DNA from: a virus | Strand: one strand, 5' to 3' | Length of the DNA stretch: 42,361 nt | IMG/VR virus record: IMGVR_UViG_3300045988_031209 | Span: 1-42,361 of that record | Notes under the pieces: model-generated | Told to the model about the DNA's origin: nothing | The model's input: the letters and a program-made list of their open reading frames with translations, nothing else | The model's database searches: none | Shown here: positions 5,541 to 37,045 of the stretch, piece after piece | How the letters are laid out: each line of letters starts with the position of its first letter | Numbering within the stretch: position 1 is the first letter of the stretch | Translations under genes and position numbers: made by a program

Positions 5541-6344
5541 TTACGCCACCCCGTCCTGGTTGTGCTGCCGGGCGGCAAGCTCCATCTGCTCCACGCTCTG
5601 CCTGCGCTCCACGCTGGGCAGCATTCCCACGGCCTTGAGCTGCTCATAGATAAACCGCTGACCCGCTTCCGTCCATACGGTGGTGTTCTTGGTGTCCCAC
5701 TCGCCGGTGCTCTTGTGCTGGAACGGCGTGGATTTGCGGTTTTTGGTGTAGCCCTTGCCGCAATACTTGGCGTATAGCACCCACTGCCCGTCGCTGGTCT
5801 TGTACTGGATCTTCAGGCCGTGAAGGATGCTGTTGAGTTTCTCGGCGCTCAGGCCGTAATCCTTGGCAAGGGTGGTAGTGGTGCGGCAGTTCTTGCCCAC
5901 GCACACCGCCCGGGCATACTCTGCATCCGGCTTCAGGTCGTTGTTCTCTGCCAGAAGCTGGCGGTTGGCGGCCTTGAGCTGGTCGTTCTGCTTCTGGGCG
6001 ATCAGCACCGCACGGCGCATGACCGCTTCCGGGCTGTTCCACTGCGCCTCCACGGCCAAGAAATACTGCCGGGCCTGCTTGCCACGCTCGTTGCGCTGGA
6101 TCATGCACAGCTCTTTGGCCATTGGGATGGTGAGTTTGTGGTCAATCGACCTTCCGCCGTTTTCTAAATTTTTAGAAAGCGACACATAATCGATGTTTTC
6201 AGTGAATCCGTATGCAGACATATTCTTGAACCAGTCTGCATACTTGGATTTGACTTCCAAGAATTCGTGCAGCTCCCGGCCGCTCACCGTGGGGCGCTCC
6301 GGGTTATCGTAGCTAACTGGAATCAGTGTTTTCAGATCGTCCAT
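5541..6344 (-). CDS. Phage antirepressor (AntA-like N-terminal domain plus KilAC/ANT C-terminal domain)
   Basis: N-terminal VSGRELHEFLEVKSKYADWFKNMSAYGFTENIDY. C-terminal TTTLAKDYGLSAEKLNSILHGLKIQYKTSDGQWVLYAKYCGKGYT. ATG 6344 follows AGGAGGG by 7 nt. Confidence 0.85.
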   Translation of the reverse strand: MDDLKTLIPVSYDNPERPTVSGRELHEFLEVKSKYADWFKNMSAYGFTENIDYVSLSKNLENGGRSIDHKLTIPMAKELCMIQRNERGKQARQYFLAVEAQWNSPEAVMRRAVLIAQKQNDQLKAANRQLLAENNDLKPDAEYARAVCVGKNCRTTTTLAKDYGLSAEKLNSILHGLKIQYKTSDGQWVLYAKYCGKGYTKNRKSTPFQHKSTGEWDTKNTTVWTEAGQRFIYEQLKAVGMLPSVERRQSVEQMELAARQHNQDGVA

Positions 6345-7110: not shown

Positions 7111-7362
7111 TCAAACCTGAAATGCCGGGCACACAGTGCCGCGGAAGTGGGTGAGGCGGATCGCGTGCTTCAGCTCCTTCTCGCTCATGCAAGCGGTCTG
7201 GAGCTGGCAGACGAACTTGATTGCCCACCACAGGCCCTGCACCGTCTGGCGGTCAAGCACCGCACGGCGCTCGGCGTCGGTCTGGGCGGCGTTGTACCGC
7301 TTGAGGGTGTTATTGCAATCTGCGACGAAGTTTTCCGGGATGTTAATAGAAAGTGCGTTCAT
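7111..7362 (-). CDS. First gene of the leftward early operon (83 aa); Cro-position protein of unknown fold
   Basis: ATG 7362 follows AGGAGG by 8 nt. It lies directly downstream of the consensus minus-strand promoter. Confidence 0.7.
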   Translation of the reverse strand: MNALSINIPENFVADCNNTLKRYNAAQTDAERRAVLDRQTVQGLWWAIKFVCQLQTACMSEKELKHAIRLTHFRGTVCPAFQV

Positions 7363-7392
7363 GTTTTTGTCCTCCTGTTTGCTTGTGCTTCT

Positions 7393-7425
7393 TAGCTTGG
7401 CTATATTATAGCATAGCTGGGCTAT
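7393..7425. promoter_or_regulatory. Candidate operators: 13-bp palindrome GCTATATTATAGC (7400-7412) and direct repeats TAGCT(T/G)GGCTAT (7393-7404, 7414-7425)
   Basis: Read directly. The palindrome overlaps the -10 of the leftward promoter. Confidence 0.6.
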
Positions 7426-7433
7426 CATGTCAA
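7405..7433 (-). promoter_or_regulatory. Early leftward promoter, TTGACA-17-TATAAT
   Basis: Minus strand reads TTGACA tgatagcccagctatgc TATAAT. The -35 is at 7428-7433 and the -10 at 7405-7410. Confidence 0.8.
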
Positions 7434-7465
7434 CACTTTTTTCTTCGCTCAGCTAATTTTTTCTA

Positions 7466-7494
7466 TTGACACGGCTTTGTGCTTGCTGTATAAT
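7466..7494 (+). promoter_or_regulatory. Repressor promoter, TTGACA-17-TATAAT
   Basis: TTGACA at 7466-7471, a 17-nt spacer, and TATAAT at 7489-7494. The RBS AAGGAGG precedes ATG 7518. Confidence 0.8.
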
Positions 7495-7517
7495 AAAGGT
7501 GCAAGGAGGCGTCGCTA

Positions 7518-7892
7518 ATGAACACTCGAATCGAGCAAATCATTGCAGCGCTTAATATCAAGAAGGTTGACTTTGCCAACCGTCTTGGTGTTTCTCAGCC
7601 CTTCGTTTCTGAGCTTTGTTCAGGCCGGAAGGTTCCCAGCGACCGAACGATCTCCGACATCTGCCGTGAGTTTAACGTCAACGAGACGTGGCTGCGGACA
7701 GGCGAAGGAGAGATGTTCAACCAGATAACCCAGTCGGAGAAGCTGGCTGCTTTTCTCGCTGACATTACGGCGAACGAAGAAGACAGCTTCAAACGGCAGT
7801 TTGTGGAAGTTCTGGCCGATCTGGAGCCCGAAGACTGGAAATTTCTTGAGCGGATGGCGAGAAAGCTGCAAAAAAAAGAGGGAAACCCGTAA
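7518..7892 (+). CDS. CI-like lysogeny repressor, XRE-family HTH (124 aa, no peptidase domain)
   Basis: HTH IKKVDFANRLGVSQPFVSELCSGRKVPSDRTISDICREFNVNETWL. It is divergent from the early operon. Confidence 0.85.
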   Translation: MNTRIEQIIAALNIKKVDFANRLGVSQPFVSELCSGRKVPSDRTISDICREFNVNETWLRTGEGEMFNQITQSEKLAAFLADITANEEDSFKRQFVEVLADLEPEDWKFLERMARKLQKKEGNP

Positions 7893-7909
7893 GGGTTCCC
7901 CTTCTTTTG
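7878..7909. terminator. Intrinsic terminator shared by convergent genes
   Basis: Hairpin GAGGGAAACCC-gtaa-GGGTTCCCCTTC followed by TTTT. An A-run lies on the other side, so it may act in both directions. Confidence 0.65.
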
Positions 7910-7919
7910 CTACCTTGAT

Positions 7920-8033
7920 TTATTTAATCAGCCTGCTGGCGTAAACCCAGACCAGGCGCAGCTTGCGCAGGTCTGCCTTTTCCAGCAGTTTGATAATTGC
8001 GTCAATGTAGCCTTGTCGGTCTGTGGTGTTCAT
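7920..8033 (-). CDS. Small protein (37 aa), not in the ORF track
   Basis: ATG 8033 follows GGAGG by 7 nt. Translation MNTTDRQGYIDAIIKLLEKADLRKLRLVWVYASRLIK, stop TAA at 7920-7922. Confidence 0.55.
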   Translation of the reverse strand: MNTTDRQGYIDAIIKLLEKADLRKLRLVWVYASRLIK

Positions 8034-8065
8034 TCTGATGCCTCCTATGTGATGTAAAATTTAAT

Positions 8066-8677
8066 ATGTGTGAGGTGGTTCCCGTGATATGGAATGTTGG
8101 ATTTCGAAAAAATATCACGCGGGTTATCAATGCGGTCTTCAAGAAAAAAGATGATCCCGAAGTCCAAGAGTCGTTGCATTTTGTGCGCCCGAACGCTAAG
8201 TGGAGCAAATCACCAGAGCCCGTTGTTTTAATCGACCCTGACACCGGGGAGGAATTTGTGGATTTCCCGGAAGAAACAATACCGGAACGGATACGGAAGG
8301 TTTTGGACTCTTTTCTAGTGATAGAGAGAACTTCAGATATCGATATTCTATTTTCAAGATATGATATGATTCTTGATACGCTCGATGAGCTCAAGAAGTA
8401 TGAGAGGATGGGGTTCAAATTTGATTTTAGCCCTACTGAGCTTTATAACATGATGAAATTTTCTCTCGTTGACCTTTTTGAGGTTGTTGTCGAAAATTCT
8501 TATATCAAGCAGCTGGAAAAACTCCTGACTTTGAAAACTCAAAAGGGAAAAGCAAACTCTATTCAAAAGTGGAAAGATTCTTTTTCGGATGAACGAATTA
8601 CAAATTCAATGATGGGTTGTGTGGTTTTACGTTTTGACAAAATGCAGAATTTTATAAAATCAAAAGATGAGGTGTAA
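8066..8677 (+). CDS. Hypothetical protein (203 aa), AT-rich; first gene of the lysogeny-side cassette
   Basis: Hand counts give about 35-42% GC on sampled 60-nt lines, against about 57% in the flanks. The more likely start is GTG 8084, 6 nt after GAGGTG. No family recognised. Confidence 0.7.
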   Translation: MCEVVPVIWNVGFRKNITRVINAVFKKKDDPEVQESLHFVRPNAKWSKSPEPVVLIDPDTGEEFVDFPEETIPERIRKVLDSFLVIERTSDIDILFSRYDMILDTLDELKKYERMGFKFDFSPTELYNMMKFSLVDLFEVVVENSYIKQLEKLLTLKTQKGKANSIQKWKDSFSDERITNSMMGCVVLRFDKMQNFIKSKDEV

Positions 8678-8679
8678 TC

Positions 8680-9393
8680 ATGGCAAATACCTGTCCGGTC
8701 TGCGGCGGCAAGCTGGGTCTGCTGAACCGTGAGAAAAGCGTTGACGGCTTGATTTGCGCCAGCTGCAGCAACTTTTTCTTTTCAAAATTGGGCATCCGGG
8801 CAGCAAAGCAACCGACAGCTGCCCTTGCGGACTACTGGGCTACACTGGAACAGCGTCGGAAGGCGTTCGAAGAAACCGATTCCATTTATGATGGTGACGC
8901 ACTCTTTGTGTCGATTGACAAACCCAACCGGATGTTTTGCATTGGACACCGCAGCGGCGACAAAGGCCCGCGCGTAATCTACAGCTTTGATGAGGTCGCC
9001 GGGTATGAGTCAGATGCGGATGACGTGATGGTCACGCAGTCCATTGGCGGCATTGGCCGTGCTGTGGTAGGCGCTGCCATTGCCGGGCCGGTCGGTGCAA
9101 TCGTGGGCGCATCCACCGCCAAAAGCGAGACCAGGAAGGGGCGCGGAAAGGAAAATGTCTCCATCCGCTTCGCACTTCCTCTGGGAGAGCAGGTTCTGCC
9201 TGTCCAGAAGTATCCGGGCGGCATTACTGAGTTTTTGAAGGAATGCGTTTCCGGCAGGGAAAAGGTGTCAGCTTCAACAGCTGCGTCGGGAAGCGTTGCG
9301 GATGAGCTGCTGAAATTCAAACAGCTTCTTGATCTCGGTGCCATCACCGAGGATGAGTATGCAGCAAAGAAATCTCAACTTCTTGGTATGTAA
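8680..9393 (+). CDS. Zinc-ribbon (DUF4428-like) / glycine-zipper / SHOCT-domain protein (237 aa)
   Basis: CPVCGGK...CASC, then GGIGRAVVGAAIAGPVGAIVGAS, and C-terminal ELLKFKQLLDLGAITEDEYAAKKSQLL. The ATG lies 2 nt after the upstream stop, with GAGGTG inside the upstream gene. Confidence 0.8.
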   Translation: MANTCPVCGGKLGLLNREKSVDGLICASCSNFFFSKLGIRAAKQPTAALADYWATLEQRRKAFEETDSIYDGDALFVSIDKPNRMFCIGHRSGDKGPRVIYSFDEVAGYESDADDVMVTQSIGGIGRAVVGAAIAGPVGAIVGASTAKSETRKGRGKENVSIRFALPLGEQVLPVQKYPGGITEFLKECVSGREKVSASTAASGSVADELLKFKQLLDLGAITEDEYAAKKSQLLGM

Positions 9394-9450
9394 ACCTGTT
9401 CACAACCGAATTATACAACCGCACGTTGTCGTAGCCAATGGGTTTACCCA

Positions 9451-9675
9451 TCACTCTTTTTGATAGGTTTCATCAAACTGTTGCATTTTTTGCAACAGCT
9501 CCCCTGCCCCGGTCTCTGCGCCGCCGGGCGTTTTGGCTGCCGCATGTAAGGTGTGTAGGGCATTGACCTTGCGGGCGGCATACATCATGGCACGCGCCTG
9601 CTGCTCCGGTGTCATATCGACGTAGCAGGCCAGCGCCGCGCGGATGTGATTGCAGAAATGGCTTGTCTTTTCCAT
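9451..9675 (-). CDS. Hypothetical protein (74 aa)
   Basis: ATG 9675 follows GGGAGGA by 6 nt and is coupled to the upstream 36-aa ORF. Confidence 0.6.
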   Translation of the reverse strand: MEKTSHFCNHIRAALACYVDMTPEQQARAMMYAARKVNALHTLHAAAKTPGGAETGAGELLQKMQQFDETYQKE

Positions 9676-9677
9676 GG

Positions 9678-9788
9678 TCAGTCCTCCCAAGGCTGCGGGG
9701 TGCGCTCGGTTCCGGTCAAAACGCTGGCAGGCATCCCGTCAATGATGGTCGTTTCGGTTCCTTTACCGTTTCTTTGATCAAAATCCAT
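9678..9788 (-). CDS. Small protein (36 aa)
   Basis: ATG 9788 follows AAAGGGGA by 7 nt. Translation MDFDQRNGKGTETTIIDGMPASVLTGTERTPQPWED. Confidence 0.45.
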   Translation of the reverse strand: MDFDQRNGKGTETTIIDGMPASVLTGTERTPQPWED

Positions 9789-9834
9789 TTTGTTTTCCCC
9801 TTTCTTTTGTGCATATTTATGTCTTATGTTCCAG

Positions 9835-9843
9835 ATTTTACCA
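9835..9843 (-). promoter_or_regulatory. Extended -10 element TGGTAAAAT
   Basis: Minus strand reads ...gcaTGGTAAAATctgg, about 45 nt upstream of ATG 9788. The -35 is weak. Confidence 0.4.
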
Positions 9844-9881
9844 TGCGCCGTTGGAAAATAAAACACGGATATTTTTTGTCG

Positions 9882-9908
9882 AATGGCGCAGAATTTTTCT
9901 GCGCCATT
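9882..9908. promoter_or_regulatory. Perfect 11-bp inverted repeat AATGGCGCAGA-attttt-TCTGCGCCATT (operator or terminator-like)
   Basis: Read directly. It lies in the divergent intergenic region, 39 nt upstream of ATG 9947. Confidence 0.55.
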
Positions 9909-9946
9909 TTCTGTTAAAAACACGCTGGTTTTATGGGGGCGAAAGT

Positions 9947-10534
9947 ATGAGTTATTTTACGGCGACCCAGATCGGGAAAGCGCTTGCAAAAACCCGGGTA
10001 TCTGCTGGCCTGAGTCAAGCGGAGATCGCAAGGCGCATCGAAAAAGGGGAGCGAACAGTGCAGAGCTGGGAAAAAGGCTGCACCAGCCCGGACAGCGACG
10101 AGATCATGGATTGGTGTACGGCCTGCGGGGCATCCCCCATCGCCGTGTTTATGGAGATGATCCACCCGGAGCTGTACGCGACACCCGATGACGGAAAGAC
10201 CGACACAGAGCTGGACGCGGAGCTGTGCCGCTTTGTGGTAAACTTGCCACCGCTGACGAAACGACTGCTTCTTTTCGTGCTGAAGGGCAACCATGGCAGC
10301 AGCCCGCCCGCTGTGATCTCCGAGGTAGCCGCCAACCTGCACTGCCCACTCAACAACCGGGTCAGCGTGTGCGGAATCATCATCAACCAATACAATTTTG
10401 CCCAGAACATGGGATTAGACCCCTGCCCGGACGACCCACAGCCGCCAATAGACGATTTGAAGGTAACTTACAAGGCCGGGCGTGAAGCTTCGGAAAAAGG
10501 CGCGCAGGGTTACATCGGGCGAAAAAAGGAGTAA
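9947..10534 (+). CDS. XRE-family HTH protein (195 aa) with unknown C-terminal domain, co-oriented with int
   Basis: HTH KTRVSAGLSQAEIARRIEKGERTVQSWEKG. Its stop is 3 nt before the int start. Confidence 0.8.
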   Translation: MSYFTATQIGKALAKTRVSAGLSQAEIARRIEKGERTVQSWEKGCTSPDSDEIMDWCTACGASPIAVFMEMIHPELYATPDDGKTDTELDAELCRFVVNLPPLTKRLLLFVLKGNHGSSPPAVISEVAANLHCPLNNRVSVCGIIINQYNFAQNMGLDPCPDDPQPPIDDLKVTYKAGREASEKGAQGYIGRKKE

Positions 10535-10537
10535 GCT

Positions 10538-11671
10538 ATGAAGTGCGTAAGACCATGTTGCCGGAAGGAGATCCCGGATGGTGCTTCTTTTTGTCCGTGG
10601 TGCGGGAAGAAACAGCCGGAAGCCGCCCCGCAGCAAAGAAAAAAACGCCGCCGTCCAAAGGGCAGCGGCAGCGTGTATAAACTGAGTGGAGCGCGGGCAA
10701 GACCGTATGTTGCGCTTACAGCCAAAAGGGACGTTCTGGGGACGTTTGAAACGGCAGGCGAAGCAGTACAAGCACTGGACGCTTACAACGCCCAGAACAC
10801 CCCCGCAGCGCGTCTGAAGTGCACTTTTGCGGATGCCTATACCCAATGGAAAGCACAGCCCAAATTTAACAAGCTCAGCACGGACATGCAAAAGGGGTAC
10901 GAGCTAGCCTATGCAAAGGCTACGCCGCTATACGACCGACAATTGCGGGACTTGAAAGCGGCAGATTATCAACAGGTCATTGACGCAATGGTGGAAAAGG
11001 GACTCTCCCGAAGCTCCTGCGAAAAGCAGCGCACGCTTTTTAGCCAGATCTGCGAGTGGGCAATGGCGCAGGACATCATAAACAAAAATTATGCCATGCT
11101 GCTGCAGCTCCCGGCGGCTACAGGAAAAGCAGAGCGCACCCTTACCGCCCAAGAGATCGAGCAGATCAGCAGCCGACAGAATGACCCAAGGTTTGGGCAA
11201 ACGGCACAAATCGCAATGGTGTTGCTTTATACCGGTATGCGCATTGACGAGCTGCTTTCCATGCGCTGCGAGGATGTGCATCTGAAAGAGCGGTACATGC
11301 AGGGCGGCGAAAAGACCGAGGCAGGCAAAAACCGCATTATCCCCATCCTTGAGCCCATTTACAAGATCATTGCCTTTTGGATGCTTGACAGCGGGTGTGA
11401 ATGGCTGATTCCATCCAAGGCCGGCACAAAGCTGGATAAGCGCAACGTGGCTACAAAGTTCCGGGCGTTGATGCAGGAATGCCATATAGAGGGCGTGCAC
11501 CCGCATACACTGCGTCATACCGCCAGCAGTAAGATGGTGGAGTGCGGCTTAGAAAAGACCGCCGTGCAGGCCATCTTGGGTCACAAAAATTTCTCCACCA
11601 CGGCCAACAAGTACGTGTCCCACAACAACCCAGCCTATTTGTTGCAGGAAATGCAGAAGATGAAGTACTGA
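10538..11671 (+). CDS. int: Tyrosine integrase with N-terminal zinc ribbon and AP2-like arm-binding domain
   Basis: CCRKEIPDGASFCPWCG, then GSGSVYKLSGARARPYVALT...FETAGEAVQALDAYN. Catalytic region HTLRHTASSKMVECGLEKTAVQAILGHKNFSTTANKYV. Confidence 0.9.
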   Translation: MKCVRPCCRKEIPDGASFCPWCGKKQPEAAPQQRKKRRRPKGSGSVYKLSGARARPYVALTAKRDVLGTFETAGEAVQALDAYNAQNTPAARLKCTFADAYTQWKAQPKFNKLSTDMQKGYELAYAKATPLYDRQLRDLKAADYQQVIDAMVEKGLSRSSCEKQRTLFSQICEWAMAQDIINKNYAMLLQLPAATGKAERTLTAQEIEQISSRQNDPRFGQTAQIAMVLLYTGMRIDELLSMRCEDVHLKERYMQGGEKTEAGKNRIIPILEPIYKIIAFWMLDSGCEWLIPSKAGTKLDKRNVATKFRALMQECHIEGVHPHTLRHTASSKMVECGLEKTAVQAILGHKNFSTTANKYVSHNNPAYLLQEMQKMKY

Positions 11672-14577: not shown

Positions 14578-15021
14578 TTAGCCCTCCTTTTCCGGATCAG
14601 GTGCTTCTTGCTTTTCCAGCGCCGCCAGCTTTGCTGCCAGCGCGTCAAACTCCTTGCGGGTGACATACTCCCCGCCTGCAGCTTGTGCGGCTGCAATCGA
14701 CGCTTTGGGGCCGCTGGTGCGCTCCTTGTAGTCGTAGATGCGGAGTGGGAACGGCCTGCCGTCCTGCCCCACTTCTTTGATGTAGAAGGTATCGGAATCA
14801 GCATCCAGTAAAAGCACCCGGCTCCCGTTTGCGACCAGATAGCCCCGGGCTGCTGCTTCACCCTGTACCCAGATAAAGCCGCTGTCAGTCGGTGCGGCCT
14901 GCCCCTGCATTGTCGGCATCATGACAGGCTGCGGCTGATACTGCGCAGCCCTGAGCTGCTCCAGCTGTCCTTGCGGCTGCTGCGGGTAGTACACTTGCGG
15001 GTATCCGTTATAAATCGGCAT
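14578..15021 (-). CDS. Hypothetical protein (147 aa): P/Q/Y-rich N-terminus, small beta domain, coiled-coil tail
   Basis: ATG 15021 follows AAGGAGG by 6 nt. Translation MPIYNGYPQVYYPQQPQGQ...GFIWVQGEAAARGYLVANGSRVLLLDADSDTFYIKE... Confidence 0.7.
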   Translation of the reverse strand: MPIYNGYPQVYYPQQPQGQLEQLRAAQYQPQPVMMPTMQGQAAPTDSGFIWVQGEAAARGYLVANGSRVLLLDADSDTFYIKEVGQDGRPFPLRIYDYKERTSGPKASIAAAQAAGGEYVTRKEFDALAAKLAALEKQEAPDPEKEG

Positions 15022-15400
15022 CGTTTTCCTCCTTGTACCAGTAGTAGATCGGGCATTCTGCGCCACTGTCCCAGCTGTCCCACCACGCGCCGTCGATCAC
15101 GGTCAGGACGTGGCCGGAGCAGCCCAGCACGTACACGCCGCGCGGGTACTCTCGGGCAAAGTCTTCCACGGTGTAGCAGGTGGTGCAGTCCGCTTCCACC
15201 AACCGGCGCTCGAACCCGCGCTTTTGAAGGTACGCGCCCCATGTGCGGTTGGCGCTGGGCATATCGCCGAGGGCGTAGCCGGTGAGCGCCAGCGCAATAT
15301 ACGCCTGCTCCCAGCTCTGACCGGTGGCTGCAGCTACTGCCCGCACTGCGCAGTCCCCGACGCTGCTCCCGCGCGGGTTCGGGTTAAACCTGTGCCACAT
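15008..15400 (-). CDS. Putative papain-like Cys/His protein (130 aa)
   Basis: Candidate catalytic residues lie in VGDCAVRAV (Cys), GCSGHVLTV (His) and WDSWDS (Asp). ATG follows GGGAGGGGG by 4 nt. Confidence 0.65.
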   Translation of the reverse strand: MWHRFNPNPRGSSVGDCAVRAVAAATGQSWEQAYIALALTGYALGDMPSANRTWGAYLQKRGFERRLVEADCTTCYTVEDFAREYPRGVYVLGCSGHVLTVIDGAWWDSWDSGAECPIYYWYKEENDADL

Positions 15401-15480
15401 GGCACCCCCTCCCTTTGCGCCCAGTGTACCGGTTTAAACCGCCGTGAGAGACAACGAACGCACAACGAAGGACAAAAAAT

Positions 15481-15521
15481 CTTGATTTGACCTTGCTTAG
15501 AGCTTGATTAAAGCTTGATTA
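15481..15521. repeat. CTTGATT motifs: AGCTTGATTA x2 with 11-bp phasing, plus a third CTTGATT
   Basis: Exact 10-mers at 15501-15510 and 15512-15521, and CTTGATT at 15481-15487. They lie 80-120 nt upstream of ATG 15400. Confidence 0.6.
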
Positions 15522-15528
15522 CTGTGAG

Positions 15529-15572
15529 CAAAAAAGAAAAGCGCCCACACGGAAAAATCCGCATGAGCGCTT
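15529..15572 (-). terminator. Intrinsic terminator
   Basis: Minus strand reads AAGCGC...GCGCTT followed by TTCTTTTTT. Confidence 0.5.
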
Positions 15573-15634
15573 AAAGATATAAATATACTTATATAAAATG
15601 ATGCAAAATAGAAAGTTTGAACGTTTTACTTGCA

Positions 15635-15674
15635 AAAAATCAAGAGCGGAACCGCCCACAGGCAATGCCGCTCT
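15635..15674 (-). terminator. Intrinsic terminator after the small membrane ORF
   Basis: Minus strand reads AGAGCGG-18 nt-CCGCTCT followed by TGATTTTTT. Confidence 0.6.
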
Positions 15675-15698
15675 CTACAAAGGCCGTAGCTTTTCAAA

Positions 15699-15866
15699 TC
15701 ATAAATCGTATGGCGTATAATGCAAAGACGCATATACCGATAAAACCACGCCTATAAATGCACTATGCCAAAATGGAAGGACGGTTTTTAGAACGCTTGA
15801 TGTCGCCCCAAAAATAATCAGAGCGAACAAAACACGGGACAAAAAGTGATATATTTTATTTGCCAT
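15699..15866 (-). CDS. Small hydrophobic protein (55 aa, 2 TM segments), not in the ORF track
   Basis: Hand translation: MANKIYHFLSRVLFALIIFGATSSVLKTVLPFWHSAFIGVVLSVYASLHYTPYDL. The region is AT-rich. GGAGA lies 16 nt upstream, which is a weak RBS. Confidence 0.45.
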   Translation of the reverse strand: MANKIYHFLSRVLFALIIFGATSSVLKTVLPFWHSAFIGVVLSVYASLHYTPYDL

Positions 15867-15933
15867 AATTCATATAAAATTGTCTCCTGCATGGTACGCA
15901 CTGCAAGTAGGCGAGCGGGAGGCTGTATCAACT

Positions 15934-16021
15934 AAAAAGACCCGCCATGATACGCATCGTCGAGAGGCTTGACGGGTTCAGATATCCACCCTAATGTGCT
16001 TCTTCGAGAGGCCGGGTGGAT
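15934..16021 (-). promoter_or_regulatory. Structured leader: 8-bp hairpin (15984-16021) followed by a terminator-like hairpin and T-run (15934-15976)
   Basis: ATCCACCC/GGGTGGAT stem, then CCCGTCA...TGGCGGG followed by TCTTTTT. It lies between a promoter-like element and the 55-aa ORF. Confidence 0.45.
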
Positions 16022-30143: not shown

Positions 30144-30731
30144 TTAGTCCTTTCCGCCGCCCGTGAACAGGTCGGCATTTGCTGCGATGGCCGCCTGGCG
30201 TTCGCCAGCGTCCTTGATCGCAAAAATTTGCTCTTTGGTCATTTTGGAGCCGGCGTTGGTGGGCGGGTTGTCCACCTTTGCGCCGGTGGTCGTGGTCGTA
30301 GCCACAAAGTCGCTCCAATCAGCTTTCAGGCTGTCGGCGTGCTTCTTGGCATCCTTGACGTTGCCCTTTTCGTCTAGCTCCAGCTTGTCGATGTCCTCGC
30401 CAGACAGCCGAACGACCCGATCAGCATACTTGTCCAGCACCCCGGCGGCCTTCAGCAGCTCCCGGAACTTGGCTTCCTTGGCTGCGTGGGTGTCCTTCTG
30501 GGTCTGCTGGGCTTTGTAGTCGGTCAGGGACTTTTCGGCGGCTTCCTTGCCGCTGTTGGCTGCGTCGCGGTCCTTTTCGGCTTTGGCGAGGGCTGCGTCT
30601 TTCTCATCGAGCTGGTTCTGCAAGGTGTCCGTTTCCTTATGCAGCACGTCCAGAATTTTCTTGAGCTTGCCGCTGGTGTCGGTCGTTTCATCTTCCAGAA
30701 TTTCCCGGAGAGTCTTGCGTTCGAGTGCCAT
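30144..30731 (-). CDS. Head scaffolding protein (195 aa)
   Basis: ATG 30731 follows AAAGGA. The protein is charged and helical: MALERKTLREILEDETTDTSGKLKKILDVLHKETDTLQNQLDEKDAAL... The track ORF extension runs through the tRNA. Confidence 0.8.
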   Translation of the reverse strand: MALERKTLREILEDETTDTSGKLKKILDVLHKETDTLQNQLDEKDAALAKAEKDRDAANSGKEAAEKSLTDYKAQQTQKDTHAAKEAKFRELLKAAGVLDKYADRVVRLSGEDIDKLELDEKGNVKDAKKHADSLKADWSDFVATTTTTGAKVDNPPTNAGSKMTKEQIFAIKDAGERQAAIAANADLFTGGGKD

Positions 30732-30806
30732 GTGATAGTCCTTTCTGCCCTTGCTCGGGCTGCCATGCTTGGCAATAAGGTTTATTTGCCGGACGTGCTG
30801 CCGGTG

Positions 30807-30883
30807 TGGTGCCGCCTGTGGGGCTTGAACCCACGCCCCCCGGATTAAAAGTCCGGTGCTCTGCCAGACTGAGCTAAAGCGGC
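30807..30883 (-). tRNA. tRNA-Lys (anticodon UUU), CCA encoded
   Basis: Hand fold: gccgctt ta gctc agtctggca gagc a ccgga cTTTTaa tccgg ggggc gtggg ttcaagc cccac aggcggc a cca (77 nt). Confidence 0.85.
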
Positions 30884-30954
30884 ATAAAAAAACCACTATG
30901 AAGCCTTTTTCGGGGCACATAGTGGTTAAAATGGGGGATTTCCGTGAATGACTT

Positions 30955-36840: not shown

Positions 36841-36972
36841 CAGAATATCAAAATAAGCAGCACCCGTGCATTCAGTTCGTTGGACATGCGTCAAACGGTG
36901 GGCACTGCTGCATCCGGAACTTTCGCGGCCGGATGCCCCGCTATTGCGCGGCCCGCTCATAGGGCACGCAAG

Positions 36973-37045
36973 CACTCCCGGCAGGGCTCGAACCTGCAAC
37001 ATGCGGTTTTGGAGACCGCTGCTCTACCACTTGAGCTACCGGAGT
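36973..37045 (-). tRNA. tRNA-Trp (anticodon CCA), no encoded CCA end
   Basis: Hand fold: actccgg ta gctc aagtggta gagc a gcggt ctCCAaa accgc atgtt gcagg ttcgagc cctgc cgggagt g. There is one G-G mismatch at 6:67. Confidence 0.75.

Follow-up and report, generated by a model that had tools for sequence, protein, structure and literature searches.

The stretch of DNA analysed here (the window; 42,361 nt, IMG/VR record IMGVR_UViG_3300045988_031209) is the genome of a temperate phage. We focus on two adjacent plus-strand genes in its lysogeny module, gene 1 (8084..8677) and gene 2 (8680..9393). After the repressor gene, the order is a bidirectional terminator, a 37-aa open reading frame (ORF) on the minus strand (orf37), gene 1, gene 2, a 79-aa minus-strand ORF (orf79), a second helix-turn-helix (HTH) gene and a tyrosine integrase gene. 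An earlier interpretation made from the letters alone, the sequence-only reading, had placed the two genes between repressor and integrase and taken them as a horizontally acquired sensor and membrane effector. The ORF positions it gave are all confirmed and its lysogeny module stands, but orf79 and the second HTH gene precede the integrase. The distribution of the two genes among other viral loci shows them to behave as separate, independently exchangeable accessory genes, and not as a fixed sensor–effector pair.

Gene 1 is an AT-rich, optional accessory gene of 197 aa when read from the GTG at 8084, the start favoured by most homologues and by public gene calls (203 aa if read from the ATG at 8066). 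Its ribosome-binding site (RBS) is GAGGTGG at 8072-8078. The guanine plus cytosine (GC) content of 8084-8677 is 38.4%, within the 35-42% counted by hand earlier, with 41.9% at third codon positions (GC3) and 33.6% over 8300-8677. This makes gene 1 the lowest-GC 594-nt stretch of the window (mean 54.6%, sd 4.3), in which 594-nt stretches with GC <=40% amount to 0.26%. The flanks lie at about 51-57%, so that the earlier value of 57% was slightly high, while the strong drop in gene 1 holds. The gene is under purifying selection (ratio of non-synonymous to synonymous substitution rates, dN/dS, 0.12), and its exact sequence is indexed in 870 blocks of an assembly collection. In one locus (L094), a 594-bp segment corresponding to 8061..8654 is absent: gene 1 has been lost precisely between short TAAAAT repeats and gene 2 is kept. 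Together, the extreme low GC, the razor-sharp junctions and this precise loss show gene 1 to be, by all appearances, an optional insert from a low-GC donor; it looks horizontally acquired, as had been proposed.

Beyond the window, gene 1 belongs to a family defined by a helical core of about 100 aa with the motifs (T/V)FFSRY and LKTxKGKxN. In gene 1 itself, which is a member by this definition, the conserved core lies at 8282..8584 on the plus strand (aa 73-173 of the 203-aa reading) and carries the motifs TSDIDILFSRYD and LKTQKGKAN. An exhaustive profile search found the core (aa ~65-168) to be common to 108 representative proteins, and the alignment of distant members with gene 1 has an hhalign probability of 99.2 (E 1.6e-19). 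The family phrog_7974 is matched by 52 of 62 gene 1 relatives and by gene 1 itself only at E 0.081. The N-terminal part differs from member to member and can hold transmembrane (TM) segments, a zinc ribbon, DUF4236, SAP or a fused RNase T exonuclease. A single match to PDC-S48/DEDDh among the relatives was rejected as an identity for the family, as it covers the fused RNase T domain only and not the common core. Relatives of gene 1 come mostly from AT-rich contigs, which is consistent with its foreign composition. Searches of Pfam, NCBIfam, PADLOC and PDB sequences gave nothing for gene 1. Its AlphaFold2 model has a mean predicted local distance difference test (pLDDT) score of 54.8, and Foldseek returned only generic helical bundles (E >= 0.6).

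Gene 2 encodes a 237-aa protein (phrog_888, E 4e-32) and is closely coupled to gene 1. The gene 1 stop codon, TAA, occupies 8675-8677, the gene 2 ATG follows 2 nt on, and the gene 2 RBS, GAGGTG at 8669-8674, lies within gene 1, as first described. The protein combines three modules, all on the plus strand. A DUF4428 zinc ribbon at aa 4-32 (8689..8775; Pfam E 8.1e-8, 32.4 bits against a cut-off of 27.8) carries the CxxC...CxxC cysteines C5, C8, C26 and C29, which are conserved in A3. A PH-like beta sandwich (8872..9279) consists of strands at aa 67-111 and 158-178 and a capping helix at 182-200, and holds a glycine-zipper insert at aa 113-156 (9016-9147). Finally, a SHOCT domain occupies aa 208-235 (9301..9384; E 1.3e-6, 28.4 bits against a cut-off of 27). 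The sequence-only reading had recognized the zinc ribbon and the SHOCT-like end, both of which exceed the Pfam cut-offs, and its beta-rich centre with a glycine zipper is now identified as PF27000 (PH_gly_zipper). This family is precomputed for P0022, a protein 100% identical to gene 2, and for all 120 of its listed relatives.

The AlphaFold2 model of gene 2 (mean pLDDT 71) was built from two clades with 30-38% identity between them. In this model, the zinc ribbon (aa 1-37) is followed by a helix (46-62), five strands (67-111), a low-confidence insert (114-154), two further strands (158-178), the capping helix (182-200) and a helical hairpin formed by SHOCT. As modelled, this order of strands and helices is that of a PH fold with a loop insertion. 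The best Foldseek matches in the PDB are nearly all PH-superfold proteins (p62/Tfb1, Rtt106, FERM, PTB, GRK2), at non-significant E values of at least 0.06; in BFVD, phage SHOCT proteins are matched at E 3e-11 and a ‘Bacterial PH domain protein’ at E 5e-4. The insert, GGIGRAVVGAAIAGPVGAIVGAS, is followed by a basic stretch and forms the hydrophobicity peak of the protein (Kyte-Doolittle 19-residue average of 1.68 at aa 128). Residues G123, R127, G131, G136, G139, G143 and K148 are invariant between the two clades. Since both ends of the insert lie in one folded sandwich and its hydrophobic stretch is only about 24 residues long, it would more probably act as a re-entrant or peripheral anchor than as a membrane-spanning pore. 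SHOCT-like domains have been predicted to tether proteins to the inner leaflet (PMC11237479). There is no signal peptide, the N-terminus (MANTCPVCGG) being the zinc ribbon, and no enzymatic or DNA-binding domain was found in Pfam, PADLOC, NCBIfam or PDB searches. By its domain content, gene 2 is thus shown to have what appear to be targeting and anchoring modules only.

Selection on gene 2 is purifying overall (dN/dS 0.15), and the PH C-terminal half evolves faster (0.30) than the zinc ribbon, the PH N-terminal half and SHOCT (0.06-0.08). Moreover, the window and another locus (L004) differ at one position over 7200-8954 and then by 25-46 mismatches per 100 nt. This sharp divergence places a recombination breakpoint inside gene 2 at 8955, near codon 92. 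Two candidates for kinship with gene 2 were set aside: gp03 of S. aureus phage SA13, a PH and SHOCT protein in the same position, aligns over SHOCT only, and mimicry of the tape measure was rejected, as the glycine zipper has no significant similarity to the tape measure protein of its own phage. A scan of genome contigs with gene 2 as a single protein returned SHOCT-level matches only, in Actinomyces and metagenome-assembled genomes. In the literature, searches on PH_gly_zipper, PF27000, phrog_888 and DUF4236 yielded no relevant paper, and no experimental work on either family was found.

The independence of the two genes is most clearly seen in their distribution. Our sample, typed by context, comprised 46 viral loci that carry gene 1 and 78 that carry gene 2. 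The 69 distinct gene 2 loci fall into 11 upstream types, with gene 1 in 28, a homologue of it in 4 and no gene-1 relative in 37. The homologue (231 aa, 29% identical) likewise ends 2 nt before gene 2. In the 37 loci, small membrane or winged-helix-like proteins lie between repressor and gene 2, or just a short reverse ORF, which stands there alone in L051 and L103. A distant clade of gene 2 (~36% identical) has an S24 repressor, gene 2 and an integrase, with no gene 1. The genes are therefore not co-conserved, and the sensor and membrane effector pair of the sequence-only reading falls with this result.

Gene 1 is no more faithful to gene 2. Other genes follow it in five loci (L019, L029 and L040-42). 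The gene that stands in the place of gene 2 in L019 and L029 encodes two Lipoprotein_Ltp repeats (PF07553, E 2e-27) together with a TM segment and a zinc ribbon; in L040-42, the gene after gene 1 encodes a 246-aa protein that has a signal peptide. In addition, 21 loci of the same backbone carry a 306-aa, two-TM allele of the gene-1 family together with an unrelated 205-aa protein and no gene 2. The integrases of this set are 92-99% identical to that of the window phage, with one at 55%, and two of the 21 have a close repressor allele and orf37. The 205-aa partner was compared with gene 2 as a possible relative and is unrelated to it.

The borders of the exchanged segments suggest how such cassettes could be traded. 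A conserved leader, ATGTGTGAGGTG, lies on the plus strand at 8066..8077, 18 nt before the gene 1 GTG, and includes the RBS. Homology among different upstream contexts starts at this leader. The same leader, with up to ~30 nt more of shared sequence, stands directly before gene 2 in loci without gene 1 (L050, L051, L056 and L103) and also before the Ltp-like gene in L019 (6650-6685), where a 37-nt scar of gene 2 is kept in front of a second leader copy. The 3' end of gene 1 recreates a similar sequence, GAGGTGTAAYC, ahead of gene 2. Cassettes thus appear to have been stacked and swapped at a short portable leader/RBS, and from the aligned junctions we infer that this short homology may serve as the recombination substrate for cassette exchange. 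We also noted that a portable form, (ctatttttgt)ATGTGTGAGGTG, heads each different cassette in the slot.

The right border carries a conserved sigma-70-type promoter (9410..9438, minus strand, TTGGCT-17-TATAAT) that points antisense into gene 2. The form TTGACx-17/18-TATAAT is present in 47 of 54 distinct downstream sequences, and the distant clade (L127, about 5790-5820; ~36% identical) has the full consensus, TTGACA-17-TATAAT. It follows directly after the stop codon of gene 2 or of its replacement, including the Ltp-like gene in L019 (7270-7310). Short inverted repeats (ACAACC...GGTTGT) flank its -10 element. Gene 2 is also followed on the plus strand by a weak terminator-like hairpin with a T-run (9438..9460).

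Both families are found between repressor and integrase in other phages. A search of viral contigs with an 11-sequence core alignment placed gene-1-family members in 20 clusters of other contigs, typically in the order repressor, (ImmA), X, integrase. The 72 neighbours in these clusters include 25 HTH_3 proteins, 11 serine recombinases, 6 tyrosine integrases, 4 S24 and 4 M78 proteins. Look-ups of single members gave the same picture. In S. pyogenes 315.5, the order around SpyM3_1353 is int, X, a small ORF, an ImmA-like gene and cI; in the L. gasseri phage phiadh, it is int, ORFA, metalloprotease and repressor. Both families thus turn up repeatedly between the repressor and integrase genes of unrelated Firmicutes phages. 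Gene-1-family neighbourhoods also hold HicA and PemK toxins, a ThsB-TIR and DUF4231 pair and a DUF4041/T5orf172 (SNIPE-like) gene, and one member adjoins JetA of a Wadjet system. Such neighbours mean that analogous slots in other phages hold recognised defence genes. With the Ltp-type protein in the place of gene 2, they also bear out the earlier view of the repressor–integrase interval as a site for exclusion and defence genes, and a role of this interval as a cargo slot for such genes is supported. Individual examples can be seen at L211 1539-2885, L154 5774-6854, L169 5289-5918 and L145 1276-2586 (SNIPE-like, DUF4231 and ThsB-TIR, HicA/HicB and JetA neighbours).

Several characterized systems resemble parts of this locus. 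Ltp of the S. thermophilus phage TP-J34 is a surface-exposed superinfection-exclusion protein that blocks DNA injection. Gene 2 was found between repressor and integrase on the lysogeny strand, the arrangement tested for Ltp-type exclusion; it occupies the same place in the lysogeny module, and in L019 and L029 an Ltp-repeat protein replaces it, while the leader in front and the right border stay the same. However, a signal peptide, a lipobox and Ltp repeats (no match to PF07553) are all missing from gene 2, which is predicted to act from the cytoplasmic side, in contrast to Ltp. A genuine homologue of gene 2 in a cultured phage is phiadh ORFA (NP_050111.1, ‘DUF4428 domain-containing protein’; hhalign probability 99.1, E 4e-19). 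The homology spans the glycine zipper, the PH C-terminal half and SHOCT, and the position is the same. ORFA is longer, with 294 aa and an extended middle region, and no characterization of it was found.

A second line of comparison is offered by SNIPE (PD-lambda-1), a nuclease bound to the membrane that cleaves phage DNA as it is injected (bioRxiv 10.1101/2025.11.03.685801). Where SNIPE homologues lack a TM segment, their N-terminus holds a PH or DUF4428 domain, which the same study interprets as a membrane or target adaptor. Gene 2 unites these same two modules, but lacks DUF4041, a nuclease or any other detectable effector domain. For gene 1, relatives in cultured phages and protein clusters (SpyM3_1353; gp15 of the C. 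difficile phage phiCD38-2, a ‘DUF4236 domain-containing protein’; PHROG 7974/17596) have the helical core in common and N-terminal regions unlike its own. The gene orf203 of the S. thermophilus phage Sfi21, an ‘immunity region’ gene between int and a metalloprotease gene, reportedly excludes heterologous phages. It stands in the same position as gene-1-family members in Sfi21-like lysogeny modules, but is not homologous to them: as a candidate homologue of gene 1, it was rejected at an hhalign probability of 0.08.

The two-gene arrangement also recalls RexA/RexB of lambda, a two-gene abortive-infection system co-transcribed with cI. Like these, genes 1 and 2 form an adjacent pair on the lysogeny side of the switch, with one member membrane-associated (as predicted for gene 2). 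The differences are that no homology is detected (PADLOC), that genes 1 and 2 are not co-inherited, that gene 2 is not a multi-pass channel, and that here a terminator divides the operon from the repressor gene.

On balance, we consider it somewhat better than an even chance that the locus holds two independent cargo genes of a lysogeny slot, gene 2 being an exclusion or defence protein of the inner membrane face and gene 1 a separate lysogen factor. The two genes are stacked behind one short conserved leader/RBS in the variable slot of a lysogeny module that extends from repressor to integrase. As a predicted cytoplasmic protein, gene 2 would bring together a zinc ribbon, a PH-like sandwich with a 24-residue hydrophobic glycine-zipper hairpin, a basic linker and SHOCT, and would probably be an oligomer kept at the inner membrane face. 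In this position it would most likely act as a superinfection-exclusion or defence factor at the stage of DNA entry or at the membrane, hindering a membrane-stage step of superinfecting phages, most simply the entry of DNA. Interference at this stage would explain why gene 2 can be replaced by an Ltp-type protein. Its specificity may be set by the fast-evolving, recombining PH C-terminal half. Gene 1, in turn, we infer to be a second, independent factor expressed in the lysogen, and not the sensor of gene 2.

Several observations weigh against this view of two independent exclusion or defence genes. The phiCD38-2 gene gp15 (L213, 10168-10809; DUF4236) lies between the tail chaperone and tape measure genes, unlike gene 1 in its lysogeny module, and further gene-1-family members lie in structural modules (L163, and one that also matches Phage_Mu_F). 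The range of the gene-1 family thus extends beyond lysogeny modules, as gp15 of phiCD38-2 and the Phage_Mu_F relative show. Two divergent gene-1 alleles both end 2 nt upstream of gene 2, and one distant gene 1 relative is followed by a bPH_1 protein; the coupling of the second allele and the bPH_1 neighbour make some functional synergy between genes 1 and 2 possible. An optional accessory gene, or moron, would typically vary far more within this group of phages than gene 2 does, and such constancy might reflect a function of gene 2 in lysogeny as such. The glycine-zipper segment has a pLDDT of only 31-45, so that the membrane topology of gene 2 is a prediction. The earlier suspicion of a defence system found no backing in PADLOC, which gave no match at E <= 1 for gene 1 or gene 2 and none for the alternative cargo proteins; NCBIfam gave nothing for either gene, and sequence-profile searches of the PDB with both families gave nothing below E 0.3. 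Finally, a promoter search at the locus found no convincing plus-strand promoter for the gene 1–gene 2 operon, and its expression in the lysogen is for this reason assumed from position and orientation.

A bolder version of the same idea is possible, and we advance it tentatively. Here, PH_gly_zipper proteins and the gene-1 family would be two new exclusion or defence families at the cytoplasmic face of the membrane, with gene 2 as an ‘adaptor-only’ relative of SNIPE logic that blocks the DNA conduit. The slot would be a dedicated site of cassette exchange, bounded by the portable 12-30-nt leader on one side and the conserved antisense promoter on the other. The recombining PH C-terminal face would set the specificity of gene 2, and no nuclease would be needed.

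Alternatively, neither gene is defensive, and both serve the phage’s own life cycle (membrane-linked tuning of induction, integration or excision) or protect the lysogen membrane against its own holin or host bacteriocins. The near-constant position that gene 2 keeps in many mosaic relatives, beside orf79, the second HTH gene and int, would fit such a role, as would the recurrence of the order repressor, gene 2, int in the distant clade and the very frequent placement of the gene-1 family directly between repressor/ImmA and a serine or tyrosine integrase. A published account (PMC8657885) also gives bacterial PH-domain proteins a part in the transport of a leaderless bacteriocin. We nevertheless regard this explanation as unlikely: gene 2 is dispensable and interchangeable in position with an Ltp-type protein, gene 1 is dispensable too (L094), and no domain for DNA binding or catalysis can be recognised in either protein. 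Conflict genes are typically marked, as here, by adaptors that vary at the N-terminus, by a surface that recombines and by neighbours that are toxin or defence genes.

We also see a rather slim chance that gene 2 is a single-gene toxic membrane effector, for abortive infection or addiction, restrained by an antisense transcript in the manner of the 3'-overlapping type I toxin–antitoxin loci of Firmicutes prophages. The strong minus-strand promoter that reads into gene 2, with its wide conservation and its perfect form in the distant clade, is what such a system would have. Glycine zippers are found in pore-forming toxins, which would fit this role, as would the probable oligomerization of gene 2 through SHOCT. 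Yet the promoter also follows the Ltp-like replacement gene and so belongs to the backbone rather than to gene 2, and with its 237 aa and three folded domains the protein does not resemble a type I toxin. A scan of 7300-10100 against Rfam found no known RNA family, and a minus-strand terminator was sought inside gene 2 and not found. In addition, the synonymous rate (dS) is high across the 3' end of gene 2, so that no constraint from an overlapping RNA or ORF is visible. A type II toxin–antitoxin pair was also considered and rejected, given that gene 1 and gene 2 match no toxin or antitoxin family and are not co-inherited.

Least probable is an obligate abortive-infection pair of the Rex type, in which gene 1 would sense infection and activate gene 2 to depolarize the membrane through its glycine zipper: the translational coupling with 2-nt spacing and the gene 2 RBS inside gene 1, the same coupling of the 29%-identical allele, the bPH_1 protein beside a distant gene 1 relative and the hydrophobicity of the zipper (the 1.68 peak) speak for it, but they are outweighed by the free reassortment of the genes (gene 2 without a gene-1 relative in 37/69 loci and in the distant clade, gene 1 with an Ltp-like or secreted protein instead of gene 2, the precise deletion in L094 and the 21 same-backbone loci with a gene-1-family allele and no gene 2), by the lack of PADLOC matches and by a 24-residue hydrophobic insert that sits in a folded domain and so cannot span the bilayer twice.

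The locus does not reveal a new kind of system. It holds two uncharacterized families in a known type of hotspot, together with a clear negative on their pairing, and both families are already database clusters (Pfam PF27000 and PHROGs). Their interest lies in the fact that the lysogeny-side cargo of the poorly understood temperate phages of gut Firmicutes decides which phages infect a lysogen. Both proteins are abundant, and both families are common in Firmicutes phages, including those of gut species. Moreover, the families reach cultured, tractable phages (phiadh, 315.5 and phiCD38-2), which makes the prediction directly testable. If it is true, exclusion from the cytoplasmic face by targeting modules alone would make gene 2 a new mechanistic class of exclusion protein, and one Pfam family and several PHROGs now without any function would gain one. 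The short common leader provides a concrete handle on how the slot is shuffled.

The remaining features of the locus frame this slot. Upstream, two sigma-70 promoters, at 7433-7405 on the minus strand and 7466-7494 on the plus strand, form a divergent lysis/lysogeny switch that divides the Cro-side minus-strand operon from the CI-like repressor gene. Each agrees with TTGACA-17-TATAAT at 12/12 positions, a back-to-back perfection that is unusual in a phage genetic switch. The left border of the slot is the CI-like HTH repressor (7518..7892, plus strand, 124 aa; HTH_3 E 7e-9, Phage_CI_repr E 2e-6, phrog_8 and phrog_4). A bidirectional terminator-like hairpin at 7879..7902, with a 10-bp stem, six GC pairs and T/A runs on both sides, divides the repressor gene from the cargo operon and also terminates orf37. 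This 37-aa ORF (7920..8033, minus strand) does exist as a gene with a strong RBS, as previously proposed: its RBS is AGGAGG, public assemblies list it among their called genes, and it is conserved. Its inheritance follows the repressor allele and not gene 1, orf37 being found both in L094, which has no gene 1, and in L185, which has another gene-1-family allele, and it may belong to the immunity cassette. A different small reverse ORF takes its position behind other repressor alleles. In another slot variant, the C-terminal tail of a 99-aa HTH regulator (L112; ...IDAINTRLQKAAPDKVQLVWIFASGIIRA) is similar to orf37.

On the other side, the conserved right flank (9451..11671) consists of orf79 (9451-9690, minus strand), the second HTH gene (9947-10534) and the tyrosine integrase gene (10538-11671). 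In integrated copies, host RrnaAD and S41 peptidase genes adjoin the integrase, and both composition and relatives point to a Firmicute host from the human gut.

Elsewhere in the window, a second low-GC island lies at about 15500-16000, where 594-nt stretches starting at 15441-15481 have a GC content below 42%. It contains a 55-aa, two-TM-like ORF (15699..15866, minus strand) next to a 130-aa ORF (15008..15400, minus strand). A further accessory gene for a small membrane protein, or a holin-like gene, may be present here. The phage also carries genes for tRNA-Lys(TTT) and tRNA-Trp(CCA), at 30807-30883 and 36972-37045 (minus strand), respectively. The tRNA-Lys gene lies inside a listed 258-aa ORF (30144..30920); for this reason, that ORF may be spurious, or its true length may be less than the listed one.

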